A stretch of 64,000 nucleotides of DNA from Escherichia coli (GCF_024502345.1 NZ_JALDNN010000002.1), one strand, 5' to 3'; shown: positions 59,014-64,000, numbered from the stretch's first letter. Made by a program: numbers and translations. Notes: generated by a model from the sequence alone, not told the origin.

Positions 59014-59833
59014 GGCACTGTTGCAAAGTTAGCGATGAGGCAGCGTTTTGTCTTATTCAAAGGCCTTACATTTCAAAAACTCTGCTTACCAGGCGCATTT
59101 CGCCCAGGGGATCACCATAATAAAATGCTGAGGCCTGGCCTTTGCGTAGTGCACGCATCACCTCAATACCTTTGATGGTGGCGTAAGCCGTCTTCATGGA
59201 TTTAAATCCCAGCGTGGCGCCGATTATCCGTTTCAGTTTGCCATGATCGCATTCAATCACGTTGTTCCGGTACTTAATCTGTCGGTGTTCAACGTCAGAC
59301 GGGCACCGGCCTTCGCGTTTGAGCAGAGCAAGCGCGCGACCATAGGCGGGCGCTTTATCCGTGTTGATGAATCGCGGGATCTGCCACTTCTTCACGTTGT
59401 TGAGGATTTTACCCAGAAACCGGTATGCAGCTTTGCTGTTACGACGGGAGGAGAGATAAAAATCGACAGTGCGGCCCCGGCTGTCGACGGCCCGGTACAG
59501 ATACGCCCAGCGGCCATTGACCTTCACGTAGGTTTCATCCATGTGCCACGGGCAAAGATCGGAAGGGTTACGCCAGTACCAGCGCAGCCGTTTTTCCATT
59601 TCAGGCGCATAACGCTGAACCCAGCGGTAAATCGTGGAGTGATCGACATTCACTCCGCGTTCAGCCAGCATCTCCTGCAGCTCACGGTAACTGATGCCGT
59701 ATTTGCAGTACCAGCGTACGGCCCACAGAATGATGTCACGCTGAAAATGCCGGCCTTTGAATGGGTTCATGTGCAGCTCCATCAGCAAAAGGGGATGATA
59801 AGTTTATCACCACCGACTATTTGCAACAGTGCC
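59014..59833 (-). mobile_element. IS26 copy 3
   Basis: IS26 IRs and Tnp26 (59066..59770). Confidence 0.97.
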
Positions 59834-60402
59834 CTATCCTGCGCCTGAATACTAGATTGTCAGATATGCAGGCAATAATGGAAGAAACACAGGCTTTTGA
59901 AAACCGTGTGCTTGAGCGTCTGAATGCTGGCAAAACCGTCAGAAGCTTCTTGATTGCCGCCGTCGAGTTACTGACCGAGGCGGTCAATATTCTGGTGCTT
60001 CAGGTGTTCCGCAAAGACGATTATGCGGTGAAATACGCCGTCGAACCGCTGCTGGACGGTAGCGGCCCGCTGGGCGATCTTTCGGTCCGGCTCAAGCTTA
60101 TCTATGGGCTGGGCGTGATTAGCCGTCATGAGTATGAAGATGCGGAGCTGCAGATGGCGCTGCGTGAAGAGCTGAACCATGACGGCAGCGAATATGCCTT
60201 CACGGATGATGAAATTCTTGGGCCGCTGGGTGAGCTGCACTGCGTCTCTGCCCTGCCGCCCGCGCCGCTCTTTGACGATAGCGATGCCGACCTGCTGGCA
60301 ATGCAAAAACAGCGCTATCAACAGGTCGTTCGCTCAACGATGGTACTTTCTCTGACCGAGCTGATTTCCCGAATCAGCTTGAAAAAAGCCTTTCAGAAAT
60401 AA
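59834..60402 (+). pseudogene. mtlR: Mannitol operon repressor MtlR, missing about 12 N-terminal codons (IS26 junction)
   Basis: ..LSDMQAIMEETQAFENRVLERLNAGKTVRSFLIAAVELLTEAVNILVLQVFRKDDYAVKYAVEPLLDG.. closely matches E. coli MtlR as recalled. Confidence 0.85.
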
Positions 60403-60407
60403 CACCG

Positions 60408-60623
60408 TCAAACTTCTTTCGCCTGGTTCTCGACCGGCTGATAAAGTTTGCGGTAGTGTTCTAATCGCTCCAGAAACATCGCCGCTTTCTCTTCCGGGAT
60501 CTCTTCCGGTACGTGACTCAGGCGAGGTGATTTCTTCAGATACTCCATAAATGCCTGACTGGACGCCATAAAATCGACGGCTTTGTCGATGACTAGTGGT
60601 ACGTTTTCGCCAAGTTTGCCCAT
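60408..60623 (-). CDS. Hypothetical small protein (71 aa) downstream of mtlR
   Basis: ORF only. Confidence 0.4.
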
Positions 60624-60774
60624 AACGTCGTCCTCCTCATGATTCCTCTCTTCAGAATGGACAATTAAGGGCGATCCGTTTGAGGAAAATGTGCGGATTC
60701 TCGTGACGGCATGCTAAAAAAGAGATCTGCATAACCATTTCTCTTAAATTACAATAAATTCATGGGATTACTAA

Positions 60775-60886
60775 GGAAGGTGCGAACAAGTCCCTGATAT
60801 GAGATCATGTTTGTCATCTGGAGCCATGGAACAGGGTTCATCATGAGTCATCAACTTACCTTCGCCGACAGTGAATTCAGCAGTAA
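60775..60886 (+). mobile_element. IS5 left-end fragment (about 112 bp)
   Basis: Identical to the first about 112 bp of IS5 copy E, then replaced by a Tn3-family IR. Confidence 0.85.
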
Positions 60887-60923
60887 GGGGTCTGACGCTC
60901 AGTGGAACGAAAACTCACGTTAA
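60886..60923. repeat. Tn3-family 38-bp terminal inverted repeat (solitary)
   Basis: GGGGTCTGACGCTCAGTGGAACGAAAACTCACGTTAAG, exact match to the Tn1/Tn2/Tn3 IR as recalled. Confidence 0.85.
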
Positions 60924-61090
60924 GCGATTGTGGCTGAGAAAAACCAAAGGATCCGGCGAGGATCCTTTGGTGTGCTGACATGACCAGTTTCTTTTGGGAT
61001 ATTTTTTCCCTGCATGAAGTCCTTTATGTCCTGATCATAATGCCATTAAAAATTCTATGCTATGGCTTCGCTATTTTAGACATTCCCTAA

Positions 61091-62286
61091 GGAAGGTGCG
61101 AACAAGTCCCTGATATGAGATCATGTTTGTCATCTGGAGCCATGGAACAGGGTTCATTATGAGTCATCAACTTACCTTCGCCGACAGTGAATTCAGCAGT
61201 AAGCGCCGTCAGACCAGAAAAGAGATTTTCTTGTCCCGCATGGAGCAGATTCTGCCATGGCAAAACATGGTGGAAGTCATCGAGCCGTTTTAACCCAAGG
61301 CGGGCAATGGCCGACGGCCCTATCCGCTGGAAACCATGCTACGCATTCACTGCATGCAGCATTGGTACAACCTGAGCGATGGCGCGATGGAAGATGCTCT
61401 GTACGAAATCGCCTCCATGCGCCTGTTTGCCCGGTTATCCCTGGATAGCGCCTTGCCGGACCGCACCACCATCATGAATTTCCGCCACCTGCTGGAGCAG
61501 CATCAACTGGCCCGCCAATTGTTCAAGACCATCAATCGCTGGCTGGCCGAAGCAGGCGTCATGATGACTCGAGGCACCTTGGTCGATGCCACCATCATTG
61601 AGGCACCCAGCTCGACCAAGAACAAAGAGCAGCAACGCGATCCGGAGATGCATCAGACCAAGAAAGGCAATCAGTGGCACTTTGGCATGAAGGCCCACAT
61701 TGGTGTCGATGCCAAGAGTGGCCTGACCCACAGCCTGGTCACCACCGCGGCCAACGAGCATGACCTCAATCAGCCGGGTAATCTGCTTCATGGAGAGGAG
61801 CAATTTGTCTCAGCCGATGCCGGCTACCAAGGAGCGCCACAGCGCGAGGAGCTGGCCGAGGTGGATGTGGACTGGCTGATCGCCGAGCGTCCCGGCAGGG
61901 TAAAAACCTTGAAGCAGCATCCGCGCAAGAACAAAACGGCCATCAACATCGAATACATGAAAGCCAGCATCCGTGCCAGGGTGGAGCACCCGTTTCGCAT
62001 CATCAAGCGGCAGTTCGGCTTCGTGAAAGCCAGATACAAGGGGCTGCTGAAAAACGATAACCAACTGGCGATGTTATTCACCCTGGCCAACCTGTTTCGG
62101 GTGGACCAAATGATACGTCAGTGGGAGAGATCTCAGTAAAAACCGGAAATAACGCCAGAAATGGTGGAAAAAATAGCCTAAATAGGCTGATTCGATGTGT
62201 TTGCGGGAAAAAAATCGGCCCAGATCCGCGAAATTTTAATCAGCGAGTCAGCTTGGGAAGAAATGACCTGCTTATTCGCACCTTCC
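61091..62286 (+). mobile_element. IS5 copy E (transposase with the same TAA nonsense as copies A and B)
   Basis: IS5 termini; ORFs 61187..61375 and 61336..62139 split by an in-frame stop; flanks CTAA / TTAA. Confidence 0.9.
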
Positions 62287-62455
62287 TTAATATAAAGACA
62301 CAAGCAGAGACATTTTTGGCACGATATAAAAACGCTAAGTTAAAAAATCACTATGACGTGTTGGGTATCAAATGTTCACTGGCATAAACCTCTGTTTCTG
62401 ATGTAAAACAGATTTTCTGAGGAGGCGTAAAACCTCCTCGTACTGCGAAATTGAT

Positions 62456-62956
62456 TTAGTGATAGCGATCGATCACGCCAACCAGATAGTGGTCGGTTTG
62501 CTGCATGTTGATGCCCGCTTTTTTAGCGCTGCGGACTTCATCCAGAATGATTTGCAACAGCGTCCCGTCCACGATTTCCTCTTTTCTGTATCGCTTCAGG
62601 AAGTTAATCGCTGACTTATCGTTTGCTGCCTGGGCGTCTTCCGTCAAAGAGGTCAGCGCATTAATGCGCTTCTGGTAATCGCTTACCGTCTGCTCAAACA
62701 GATCTTCCAGCGTGGAAAATTCACCGCACCGGGCGTGTTGCTCCTGTAACACCGGCGTGGCGCCGCTCTGTTTGATGTATTCGTACATGCGCATCATTTG
62801 CGTCACCGTATTTTGCGCCTGATGACGCAAAAATAGTGCGGTGCCATTAAGGCTATTCTCGCTGCACCTCTGGCTGAGCTGAAGATACAAATTTGAGGTA
62901 TAAAACTCCTGATTCATTTGCGCATTCAGTTTTTGAACTATTCCGCTAGCGATCAT
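62456..62956 (-). CDS. Ferritin-like protein (FtnB-like bacterial non-haem ferritin)
   Basis: 166 aa; ..KLNAQMNQEFYTSNLYLQLSQ..ILDEVRSAKKAG.. ferritin-fold signature. Confidence 0.8.
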   Translation of the reverse strand: MIASGIVQKLNAQMNQEFYTSNLYLQLSQRCSENSLNGTALFLRHQAQNTVTQMMRMYEYIKQSGATPVLQEQHARCGEFSTLEDLFEQTVSDYQKRINALTSLTEDAQAANDKSAINFLKRYRKEEIVDGTLLQIILDEVRSAKKAGINMQQTDHYLVGVIDRYH

Positions 62957-63231
62957 AGGACTTCCTTATTTCTTGTCATCTCAGAAAACGGTCACTCTTC
63001 GAAAAAACAACCAGAATAAAAGCGATTCTTTCGCTTTTTTTATTGCGCCTGGTTACACAGTCATATTCATTTTAAGTCGGGATGCTCCTTATTTAAATAT
63101 CCAACCCTACTATCGCATTTCTATCTGGCATTATTCTGTGATGGTGTTTCGATATTCACACTCCCTGTGCCAATCCTTTCTTATCGACAGTAGGAAACTT
63201 CCTCCGGCTATTCTGCTGAACACGATTAGGG

Positions 63232-64000
63232 GCACTGTTGCAAAGTTAGCGATGAGGCAGCGTTTTGTCTTATTCAAAGGCCTTACATTTCAAAAACTCT
63301 GCTTACCAGGCGCATTTCGCCCAGGGGATCACCATAATAAAATGCTGAGGCCTGGCCTTTGCGTAGTGCACGCATCACCTCAATACCTTTGATGGTGGCG
63401 TAAGCCGTCTTCATGGATTTAAATCCCAGCGTGGCGCCGATTATCCGTTTCAGTTTGCCATGATCGCATTCAATCACGTTGTTCCGGTACTTAATCTGTC
63501 GGTGTTCAACGTCAGACGGGCACCGGCCTTCGCGTTTGAGCAGAGCAAGCGCGCGACCATAGGCGGGCGCTTTATCCGTGTTGATGAATCGCGGGATCTG
63601 CCACTTCTTCACGTTGTTGAGGATTTTACCCAGAAACCGGTATGCAGCTTTGCTGTTACGACGGGAGGAGAGATAAAAATCGACAGTGCGGCCCCGGCTG
63701 TCGACGGCCCGGTACAGATACGCCCAGCGGCCATTGACCTTCACGTAGGTTTCATCCATGTGCCACGGGCAAAGATCGGAAGGGTTACGCCAGTACCAGC
63801 GCAGCCGTTTTTCCATTTCAGGCGCATAACGCTGAACCCAGCGGTAAATCGTGGAGTGATCGACATTCACTCCGCGTTCAGCCAGCATCTCCTGCAGCTC
63901 ACGGTAACTGATGCCGTATTTGCAGTACCAGCGTACGGCCCACAGAATGATGTCACGCTGAAAATGCCGGCCTTTGAATGGGTTCATGTGCAGCTCCATC
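63232..64000 (-). mobile_element. IS26 copy 4 (right end runs off the window)
   Basis: IS26 IR GGCACTGTTGCAAA at 63232; Tnp26 63283..63987 complete. Confidence 0.95.

Follow-up and report, generated by a model that had tools for sequence, protein, structure and literature searches.

An IS26-bounded segment of an mcr-10 plasmid and the probable history of its two fused modules

How did a truncated mannitol repressor gene, one end of a Tn3-family transposon and a ferritin gene come to lie between two copies of IS26 on an mcr-10 plasmid? The question is raised by positions 59014–64000 of a 64,000-nucleotide stretch of Escherichia coli DNA (NZ_JALDNN010000002.1; hereafter the window), a segment bounded by two IS26 elements in direct orientation that are identical across their 770 common bases. 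A preliminary description had noted this same-orientation pair, and every feature that it listed was recovered in the same place. Because two directly oriented, identical IS26 copies bounding a segment are what defines a pseudo-compound transposon, that layout is real. The segment is a new arrangement of known elements, the outcome of ordinary resistance-plasmid scrambling and not a new system; the interior of the unit consists of two older mobile-DNA modules that have been fused, and it has no collective function.

The IS26 pair and the mtlR–yibT fragment

The features of the segment are:

59014–59833, minus strand (transposase): IS26, complete, 820 bp, with 14-bp inverted repeats (IRs) at 59014 and 59820–59833
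59834–60774, no strand assigned: captured chromosomal segment, Pseudocitrobacter faecalis-like, 941 bp
59834–60402, plus strand: mtlR (mannitol repressor), cut by IS26, lacking its first 22 nt (native start codon) and promoter
60408–60623, minus strand: intact yibT homologue, 71 amino acids, assigned by synteny and an exact protein match
60775–60886, plus strand: IS5 stump of the canonical IS5 type, nt 1–112 with the left IR, 112 bp
60887–60924, plus strand: 38-bp terminal IR of the Tn7442 family, outer end to the left
60925–61090, minus strand: Tn7442-family interior, 166 bp, with the last 20 nt of res and a terminator hairpin
61091–62286, plus strand: IS5/ISKpn26 mosaic element, 1196 bp, full length with both terminal IRs
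62287–63230, minus strand: ferritin segment, 944 bp, with an intact FtnB-type gene at 62456–62956 (minus strand)
63231–64000, minus strand: IS26, right copy, in the orientation of the left copy; first 770 of 820 bp, the rest cut off by the window end

The left IS26 is a resident copy, common to the window and to the closest plasmid, pI9455333_MCR10 (CP122443). This plasmid is collinear with window positions 34164–59833, shares the left flank and left IS26 at 99.95% identity, and carries that IS26 at the same site without the unit and without a second IS26. The left copy is identical in sequence to the copies at 55997–56816 and 63231–64000. Provided that the right IS26 is complete, the pseudo-compound unit measures 5,037 bp and the corresponding translocatable unit 4,217 bp.

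The biology of IS26 translocatable units and pseudo-compound transposons has been set out by Harmer & Hall (PMC8722046). The locus resembles such structures in having a direct, identical IS26 pair around passenger DNA, a single IS26 at the same site in a relative plasmid, and internal junctions that show no 8-bp duplication. It differs in that its passenger consists of remnants only, with no resistance gene, and in that the right IS26 is known for 770 of 820 bp and movement is predicted only. Today the unit could be moved by passive routes alone: by its intact IS26, by IS5 transposase from other copies, or by a Tn3-type transposase acting in trans on the single IR.

The DNA next to the left IS26 is chromosomal in origin, from a P. 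faecalis-like genome. Across its full 941 bp it is 99.2–99.6% identical to seven contigs of chromosomal DNA in which the gene order is cysE-trmL-lldDRP-yibL-yibT-mtlR-mtlD-mtlA, and 99.6% identical, in native synteny, to the P. faecalis chromosome; P. faecalis DSM 27453 is the sole exact-pattern match among 100,044 species genomes. The E. coli and K. pneumoniae chromosomes are more distant, at 76.9% and approximately 80% identity, respectively. The encoded MtlR retains the full Pfam domain (PF05068, 221 bits, positions 2–164 of 165) and scores 254 bits, over the cut-off, against the NCBIfam MltR family, and its gene is syntenic with yibT. The truncation reported for this repressor is thus genuine but limited to the promoter and first 22 nt: in locus L019, the mtlR coding sequence spans 6222–6812, and the match to the window begins at 6790. 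The small ORF noted beside it is the yibT homologue; annotated yibT adjoins mtlR in 5,406 of 5,426 E. coli genomes, and the exact protein is present in chromosomal mtl loci.

This fragment, together with an IS5 downstream of yibT, forms what we call module A, which circulates on Klebsiella and Enterobacter plasmids. The same IS5 insertion is found in Klebsiella plasmids, complete in locus L040, and in locus L002 it is cut by Tn5403 at approximately nt 203. The junction between IS26 and mtlR seen in the window occurs in no PLSDB plasmid.

The Tn7442-family remnant and the mosaic element

The IS5 stump, which differs from IS5-family elements in keeping one end only, directly abuts the outer base of a 38-bp IR (60886/60887), as had been proposed. 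The IR matches that of Tn3 at 38 of 38 positions on alignment, so that the perfect match claimed for it stands, and it is identical to the IR of Tn1/2/3. It is the sole match in the window at three or fewer mismatches, with 0 expected in 100 shuffles. The preliminary description considered the IR solitary, which it is not. The repeat reads from outside to inside from left to right, and the 166 bp on its right are transposon interior. These comprise the 3′-terminal 20 nt (61071–61090, minus strand) of res, a type III restriction gene, and its terminator hairpin at 60943–60971, followed by TTTTT, with a 12-bp stem, a ΔG of −22.8 kcal/mol and a z-score of −4.0.

Together, the IR and interior (204 bp, 60887–61090) are identical at 204 of 204 positions (100%) to loci L011 and L012, unrelated plasmids that carry an identical 8,352-bp transposon with the order IR-res-mod-tnpR-tnpA-IR. 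Its proteins match ResIII, N6_N4_Mtase, Resolvase and DDE_Tnp_Tn3. In L011, the res coding sequence ends at 14147 and similarity to the window stops at 14166; in the window, the match to the transposon runs exactly up to the IS5-like element (61091). A copy on an IncN plasmid (L010) is bounded by a perfect IR at each end and shows a 5-bp duplication, AAATG. The published Tn7442 is 8,349 bp long with a type III restriction–modification cargo (PMC9664867), and its paper gives the name 'left IR' to the cargo-side end, which is the end found at 60887–60924. In length and cargo, and in the light of a deletion reported next to the left IR of Tn7442, the element matches Tn7442; we assign the 204-bp remnant to the Tn7442 family, as the cargo-side terminus of the variant in L011 and L012. 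That variant has a γδ-like tnpA end, whereas Tn7442 is described with a Tn1 end, and the remnant is one SNP apart from the L010/Tn7442-type end (CGATTG versus CAATTG).

Unlike Tn7442, of which it keeps only 204 of ~8,350 bp, the piece lacks res, mod, tnpR, the res site, tnpA and the second IR. A search of the 64-kb window found no transposon body and no Tn3-family transposase, in agreement with the earlier suggestion that the body is missing; nor does the window hold tnpA, tnpR with a res site, a second inverted IR or a 5-bp target duplication. The Tn7442-family piece is a remnant and not a self-mobile member. It resembles the solo Tn3-family IRs and TIMEs (Tn3-derived inverted-repeat miniature elements; PMC4133298) in being an IR separated from its transposase and potentially usable in trans, but TIMEs have two IRs around a short core, and here there is one, with no second in the window.

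The element at which the remnant ends was first described as a complete IS5. It is indeed full length, with both IRs, and it has the diagnostic terminal repeats, 1195/1196-bp size and YTAR flanks of IS5/ISKpn26; nevertheless, this full-length copy is a mosaic, IS5-like at nt 1–200 and 240–685 and ISKpn26-like at nt 212–230 and 686–1196. Unlike IS5/ISKpn26, it has a broken transposase, a TAC-to-TAA stop at 61291–61293 splitting the ORF into 56 and 267 amino acids (intact, ~326), and it is flanked by CTAA and TTAA, without the 4-bp target-site duplication. It shows 0 differences from the copy in locus L001. The deletion that removed the transposon body appears, from the alignments, to end exactly at this element (61091).

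The ferritin module

The gene to the right of the mosaic element encodes an FtnB-type non-heme ferritin-like protein, as had been proposed; it matches the NCBIfam equivalog NF011597 at 209.9 bits, against a cut-off of 154, over positions 1–163 of 167, and also Pfam Ferritin. The description of both mtlR and ferritin as chromosomal-type cargo is supported for the former only, every context read for ferritin being flanked by insertion sequences. The exact protein is present in 9,349 blocks of the collection; among the 10 places listed for it, IS5 lies on one side in all 10 and IS26 on the other in nine. The IS5–ferritin–IS26 module is carried by many plasmids and chromosomes, and the 944-bp segment has the same IS5-side (TTAA) and IS26-side junctions in every plasmid read. 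All related loci share the 63230/63231 junction, including L006, where IS1 has left 10 bp of IS26, and the right IS26 probably came in together with the ferritin module.

In its widespread form, module B consists of a Tn7442-family transposon, a relE/parE toxin–antitoxin pair, ISKpn26, ferritin and IS26. In L011, the intact Tn7442-like transposon is followed by the toxin–antitoxin pair, ISKpn26, ferritin and IS26; L015 has the same transposon and then toxin–antitoxin and ISKpn26, within which the locus ends. In two plasmids, the ferritin module lies 1.4 kb past the other end of an intact Tn7442-like copy. The window differs from these relatives in that its IS is a mosaic with a nonsense mutation and in that the left neighbour of the IS is a Tn7442-family stub and not the relE/parE pair. 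Since the body was lost at the IS5-like element, itself the supposed complete IS5, we take that element, ferritin and the right IS26 to be, in all likelihood, one pre-assembled module and not separate cargo. Locus L001 carries the IR–166-bp–IS–ferritin–IS26 block at 99.94% identity over 3,114 bp.

A related piece lies elsewhere in the window:

19602–21747, minus strand: ISKpn26 copy (19602–20797), a relE/parE–HTH toxin–antitoxin pair and a degenerate Tn3-like IR (~21711–21745)

The toxin–antitoxin–ISKpn26 half of module B lies 40 kb away in inverted orientation; its degenerate IR directly adjoins another IS26 (21748). The toxin–antitoxin module is the one that stands in L011 and L015 between the Tn7442-like transposon and the ISKpn26–ferritin part.

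Assembly of the unit

It is established what each piece is and where it begins and ends, that the IR is of Tn7442-family origin and how the modules are built in relatives; the order of events and the route taken by IS26 we infer. We consider it probable that the unit arose by fusion of modules A and B along the following lines. A Tn3-type transposase would have linked a Tn7442-family transposon, by its cargo-side end, to the module A IS5 at nt 112. The DNA from 166 bp inside the IR up to the ferritin-side ISKpn26 would then have been lost at an IS5-family element, and with it type III res and mod, tnpR, the res site, tnpA, the other IR and the toxin–antitoxin pair; this would leave the IR and 166 bp against a recombinant IS5/ISKpn26 element with no target duplication. 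IS26 would have trimmed the left side of mtlR, and the block, with the IS26 that accompanies ferritin, would have been placed beside the IS26 already present in the mcr-10 IncF plasmid, likely as a translocatable unit or through a cointegrate.

The preliminary description had offered a simpler course, in which IS5 received a Tn3-family transposon whose clean deletion left a solitary IR, and the complete IS5 and ferritin were independent, chromosomal-type cargo. A perfect IR abutted by an IS5 stump and the lack of a transposon body in the window agree with it, and the joining of a Tn3-family end to IS5 nt 112 stands. However, 166 bp of interior follow the IR up to the exact start of the IS5-like element, the IR–166-bp–IS–ferritin–IS26 block travels as a single unit in other plasmids, and the ferritin contexts read are flanked by IS5 and, opposite it, by IS26 or a remnant (IS26 in nine of the 10 places listed); as a whole, we regard this version as very improbable. 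Still harder to credit is a junction between IS5(112) and the IR made by a blaTEM transposon (Tn1/2/3) and later linked to the 166 bp by homologous recombination within the IR. The identity of the repeat to the very common IR of Tn1/2/3 would allow this, but the homology is limited to 38 bp, and no PLSDB record holds the IS5(112)/IR junction in a single alignment piece.

More serious is the possibility, to which we give less weight than to the proposed history, that truncation came first: a Tn1/Tn3-type transposase acting in trans would have attached the IR–166-bp–IS–ferritin–IS26 block to IS5 at nt 112, no complete transposon ever having resided in this IS5. The route would be one-ended transposition or adjacent deletion from a single IR, with the IR still a working end. 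The truncated IR end has seven distinct left flanks in 11 copies, with each break precisely at the outermost IR base and within an AT-rich 5-mer; this diversity fits a single 'insert, then delete' history poorly and suggests that the end was re-joined after truncation. The window, L001 and L041 are at least 99.9% identical on the right yet have three different left flanks, and no PLSDB plasmid has the intermediate, a complete transposon with an IS at 166 bp. Tn3-family elements are documented to undergo one-ended transposition (PMC4133298, citing Avila et al. 1988), mobilisation of DNA by solo IRs has been proposed (PMC4133298), and a deletion adjoining the same left IR of Tn7442 has been reported (PMC9664867). 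Against this, the 64-kb window, which is part of the genome, holds no Tn3-family transposase, neither a defined right end nor a 5-bp duplication was found, and one-ended transposition is rare in experiments. Moreover, the same diversity of flanks could result if the truncated allele recombined homologously into complete copies already resident, through the 204 bp at one end and through IS26 or IS5 at the other. The IR–166-bp–IS junction is also joined to non-ferritin DNA (L016, L042 and L043), so the IS may have inserted at 166 bp before ferritin became linked.

The last step of the proposed history has a competitor of its own, also on the unlikely side, in which no translocatable unit was inserted and two IS26 plasmids, the first contributing the mcr-10 backbone and the second modules A and B, underwent cointegration or homologous recombination followed by deletions. 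The window holds four copies of IS26 and five of the IS5 family, and a target duplication survives in just one of the latter, which points to rampant recombination, and the displaced, inverted half of module B described above is in keeping with this. In addition, L040 has IS26-mtlR-yibT-IS5, with a different IS26 cut point, beside betT, a gene of the mcr-10 neighbourhood. The outcome is nevertheless the same for both, an IS26-bounded unit with the capacity to form a translocatable unit, and the right flank of the second IS26 lies past base 64000.

Junctions of Tn3-family ends with the first ~300 bp of IS5/ISKpn26 were found four times independently, at nt 103, 112, ~203 and ~286. We tentatively entertain the idea that this stretch is a preferred landing site for the Tn3 family and that the 204-bp Tn7442-family stub is a still-usable end, re-joining AT-rich targets through a Tn1/Tn3-type transposase in trans. 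If so, the stub could have carried the IS5–ferritin–IS26 block into at least seven contexts, by one-ended transposition or IR-anchored adjacent deletion.

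Layout of the IS26-bounded region

The region from 59014 to 64000 is a new combination of known elements, namely an IS26 pseudo-compound layout, a Tn7442-family remnant, IS5/ISKpn26 sequences and a ferritin module. The observation made in the preliminary description is itself confirmed, and its interpretation proved partly right. The main value of the analysis lies in the correct annotation of an mcr-10 plasmid, and the outcome will not surprise a specialist; the label we favour is an IS26-bounded unit with a Tn7442 remnant, an IS5 stump, a defective IS5/ISKpn26 mosaic, Pseudocitrobacter-derived mtlR-yibT and a common ferritin module.

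Features of the unit
59014-59833: left IS26, with 14-bp IRs at both ends
59834-60402, + strand: mtlR (Pfam 221 bits, NCBIfam 254 bits)
60408-60623, - strand: 71-codon ORF (yibT), in the yibT-mtlR order of chromosomal contigs
60775-60886: left end of IS5 (112 bp)
60887-60924: Tn3-type terminal repeat (38/38 match)
60925-61090: 166 bp following the IR
61091-62286: IS5-like element (1196 bp)
62456-62956, - strand: FtnB-type ferritin-like gene (NF011597, 209.9 bits against a cut-off of 154)
63231 to window end: right IS26, 770 of its 820 bp inside the window

As originally described, two IS26 copies in the same orientation bracket the segment, and they are identical over the 770 bases that they share; the truncated mtlR and the FtnB-like ferritin between them are likewise upheld by the profile scores listed, and the small ORF, of 71 codons, is present too. 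The source of the window is an mcr-10.1 IncF plasmid. The nearest related plasmid, pI9455333_MCR10 (CP122443), follows the window collinearly over positions 34164-59833, a stretch that includes the left IS26 and the truncated IS3-family gene interrupted by it, and lacks both the DNA from mtlR to the ferritin gene and the second IS26; the flank of its single IS26 is found just below its position 2734. One IS26 at this site in the relative and the bracketing pair in the window would be the outcome expected if a translocatable unit, of 4,217 bp, had inserted beside an IS26 already resident in the mcr-10.1 IncF plasmid, an event for which a layout of this kind is predicted (PMC8722046). A cointegrate or homologous recombination would lead to the same IS26-bounded layout and is equally open, because the outer flank of the right IS26 lies beyond the window and the visible 8-bp flanks do not match: comparison of all four IS26 copies gave no matching 8-bp duplications among the flanks visible in the window. 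Two junctions of the unit, IS26|mtlR and IS5(112)|IR, are absent from PLSDB, and the ORF formed by the IS26-mtlR fusion has no entry in the assembly index.

Features to the left of the unit
50655-51731, + strand: XerC-type tyrosine recombinase gene, just upstream of mcr-10
52050-53717, + strand: mcr-10 (NCBIfam MCR-10, 1314 bits against a cut-off of 1250)
57535-58575: nucleotidyltransferase, DUF86 (HepT-like) and cupin trio, between inverted IS26 copies at 55997-56816 and 59014-59833
58625-59026, - strand: IS3-family transposase remnant (C-terminal 133 codons, rve_3 domain), cut by the left IS26 at 59013/59014

Over positions 34164-55996 the window and pI9455333_MCR10, a plasmid of Enterobacter ludwigii, share 99.9% identity, and the 59013/59014 junction is also present in that plasmid. 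The nucleotidyltransferase/DUF86/cupin trio accompanies a Tn3-family ISPa38-type transposon and IS4321 in other plasmids.

The Tn3-type repeat and the adjoining IS5/ISKpn26 mosaic

The 112-bp IS5 stump is joined to a Tn3-type IR that aligns at 38 of 38 positions, in agreement with the claim of a perfect repeat. This is the sole match in the window when up to three mismatches are allowed, none being expected from 100 shuffles. Since the IR runs from its outer to its inner end from left to right, transposon interior is expected on its right, and 166 bp of it are found there; the repeat is not, as had been supposed, solitary. These 166 bp occur in 59 PLSDB plasmids, mostly overlapping the 3' end of a gene annotated as 'DEAD/DEAH box helicase'. 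Loci from C. freundii (L011, CP056575) and S. marcescens (L012, CP020506) hold an identical 8,352-bp element that starts with the window's IR and continues with a type III restriction gene (Pfam ResIII), a DNA methyltransferase, a resolvase, a Tn3-family transposase and a second IR. The window's 204 bp (IR plus 166 bp) are 100% identical to this variant and differ by one SNP from the type in L010, a locus of an IncN plasmid. The L010 element is a derivative of 5.7 kb whose tnpA has an internal deletion; as judged from its termini, two perfect IR copies and a 5-bp duplication, AAATG, it shows the product of genuine Tn3-type transposition. PLSDB has about 32 records with complete copies of this transposon family. 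The transposon corresponds to published Tn7442, which has 8,349 bp, a Tn1 tnpA, type III restriction-modification cargo and a resolvase with 87% identity to that of Tn2; it was discovered within Tn1999.7 of OXA-48 plasmids, and a deletion adjacent to its left IR has been described (PMC9664867).

On these comparisons the 204-bp piece is a Tn7442-family remnant. On its minus strand the 166 bp comprise the 3'-terminal 20 nt of res together with its terminator, a hairpin with a 12-bp stem, then TTTTT (dG -22.8 kcal/mol, z -4.0). The preliminary description proposed a search for the missing Tn3-family body; it yielded the 204 bp and a degenerate IR beside a relE/parE pair and nothing else in the window, blastn and tblastn with the L011 element as query detecting neither the rest of the body nor any Tn3-family transposase in the 64 kb.

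Similarity to the Tn7442 family ends precisely at the first base of the IS5-like element (61091). This had been called a complete IS5, which holds for its full length of 1196 bp but not for its nature: it is a patchwork of IS5-like (nt 1-200 and 240-685) and ISKpn26-like (nt 212-230 and 686-1196) sequence, and its transposase is split into 56 and 267 codons by a TAA stop (61291-61293) that arose from a tyrosine codon through a C-to-A change at nt 203 seen in no other type. It has no target duplication, because its flanks, CTAA and TTAA, differ. The mosaic is identical base for base to the copy in L001, an E. cloacae locus (CP104841) in which the run from IR through the 166 bp, IS and ferritin to IS26 matches the window at 99.94% over 3,114 bp.

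The mosaic appears to be the defective endpoint of the deletion that removed the transposon body. The simplest reading of the sequences is that an L011-like arrangement would have lost 9.5 kb, from CTAA at the 166 bp to ISKpn26, through an IS5-family event, be it recombination between two copies or adjacent deletion. The reciprocal IS5|res junction of an intermediate in which IS5 had inserted into the transposon was not found in any PLSDB plasmid. We also considered the element at 61091 and the ISKpn26 at 19602-20797 as reciprocal products of an inversion in this plasmid, and rejected this because the copy at 19602-20797 consists of ISKpn26 sequence throughout, while L001 already has the mosaic base for base.

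Full-length IS5-family copies (IS5 and ISKpn26 types, n=5)
1410-2605
6001-7195
19602-20797
32968-34163
61091-62286

A 4-bp duplication (TTAG/TTAG) is seen only at 32968-34163; the mismatched flanks of the other four indicate that, across the plasmid, IS5 copies have repeatedly recombined with one another or caused adjacent deletions.

Left flanks of the truncated end

The truncated junction, IR and 166 bp followed by the IS, occurs in 15 PLSDB records. Among the eleven copies read (ten PLSDB loci and the window), seven mutually unrelated sequences border the IR on its left, the break lying in each copy precisely at the outer base of the IR, within an AT-rich 5-mer. Locus L017 was rejected as an eighth flank, being of the L003 type with an ISKpn19 insertion.

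Positions of the truncated end (fetched loci and window)
L001: 8001
L041: 4001
L003: 8011
L016: 5004
L042: 4002
L043: 4002
Window: 60887

Transposase, res site and second IR are all missing from the truncated copies. Behind the diversity of flanks there may lie one-ended transposition or IR-anchored adjacent deletion with transposase supplied in trans, the former known for Tn3-family elements (PMC4133298), and an adjacent deletion has been published at this same IR (PMC9664867). Complete copies already resident may also have acquired the truncated allele by recombination, with the same diversity as the outcome. That the stub is itself a working origin for one-ended transposition strikes us as rather doubtful; if true, it would add, modestly but genuinely, to the ways in which remnants of the Tn3 family are seen to remodel plasmids. 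This restriction-modification transposon has left widely scattered stubs.

IS5/ISKpn26 pieces cut by Tn3-family ends
L015, 12006-12107: cut at nt 103
Window, 60775-60886: cut at nt 112
L002, 8046-8249: cut at nt ~203
L016, 5208-5493: cut at nt ~286

Tn3-family ends thus break the first 300 bp of IS5/ISKpn26 four times, in four plasmids and with three IR types. These left 300 bp may be a candidate insertion hot spot for such ends.

Origins of the cargo

The segment 59834-60774 matches seven chromosomal contigs at 99.2-99.6% identity over all 941 bp, their native order being cysE-trmL-lldD-lldR-lldP-yibL-yibT-mtlR-mtlD-mtlA. Of 100,044 species representatives, Pseudocitrobacter faecalis DSM 27453 alone contains an exact 30-mer taken from it; identity to the pair on the E. 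coli chromosome is 76.9% and to that of K. pneumoniae ~80%. The mtlR-yibT cargo is thus chromosomal DNA of Pseudocitrobacter origin, one more documented entry of such DNA into the Enterobacterales plasmid pool. The loss of mtlR sequence to IS26 is confined to its first 22 nt. The segment also occurs in about twenty PLSDB plasmids, Klebsiella being the main host, and there too this IS5 follows yibT (complete in locus L040, cut by Tn5403 in L002); mtlR is shorter in all of them, cut by IS5 at 59927 or IS26 at 59945, so the window's version is the longest plasmid-borne one met in this analysis. Three contigs of 4.7-5.1 Mb (L023, L025 and L027) show the order Tn5403, IS5 stump, yibT, truncated mtlR, IS5, with the native mtl neighbours absent; the plasmid-type module has re-entered chromosomes, since multi-megabase contigs carry it without those neighbours.

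The designation of the cargo as chromosomal-type stands for mtlR-yibT but not for the ferritin gene, whose chromosomal origin is unproven because no native context was found with the exact protein among the ten contexts listed. In the assembly collection 9,349 blocks list that protein; in the ten contexts, several of them multi-megabase contigs, an IS5-family gene lies on one side in all ten and IS26 on the other in nine. The 944-bp ferritin segment is shared by all the related plasmids read, and so are its IS5-side (TTAATATAAAG...) and IS26 junctions; locus L006 keeps the latter though IS1 has left only 10 bp of IS26. IS5, ferritin and the right IS26 constitute one pre-assembled module, which many plasmids and chromosomes contain.

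L011 has an intact Tn7442-like copy and, 1.4 kb past its end on the tnpA side, this module, with a relE/parE-HTH pair between, and L015 has the same order of transposon, toxin-antitoxin and ISKpn26 as far as the end of the fetched locus.

Counterpart in the window
19602-21747: relE/parE-HTH pair, ISKpn26 and a degenerate Tn3-like IR (ccccgttcctcagtggaacgaaaactcacgctaac), abutting another IS26

In other plasmids the relE/parE module has the Tn7442-like transposon on one side and ISKpn26-ferritin on the other; in the window it lies inverted, at a distance of 40 kb.
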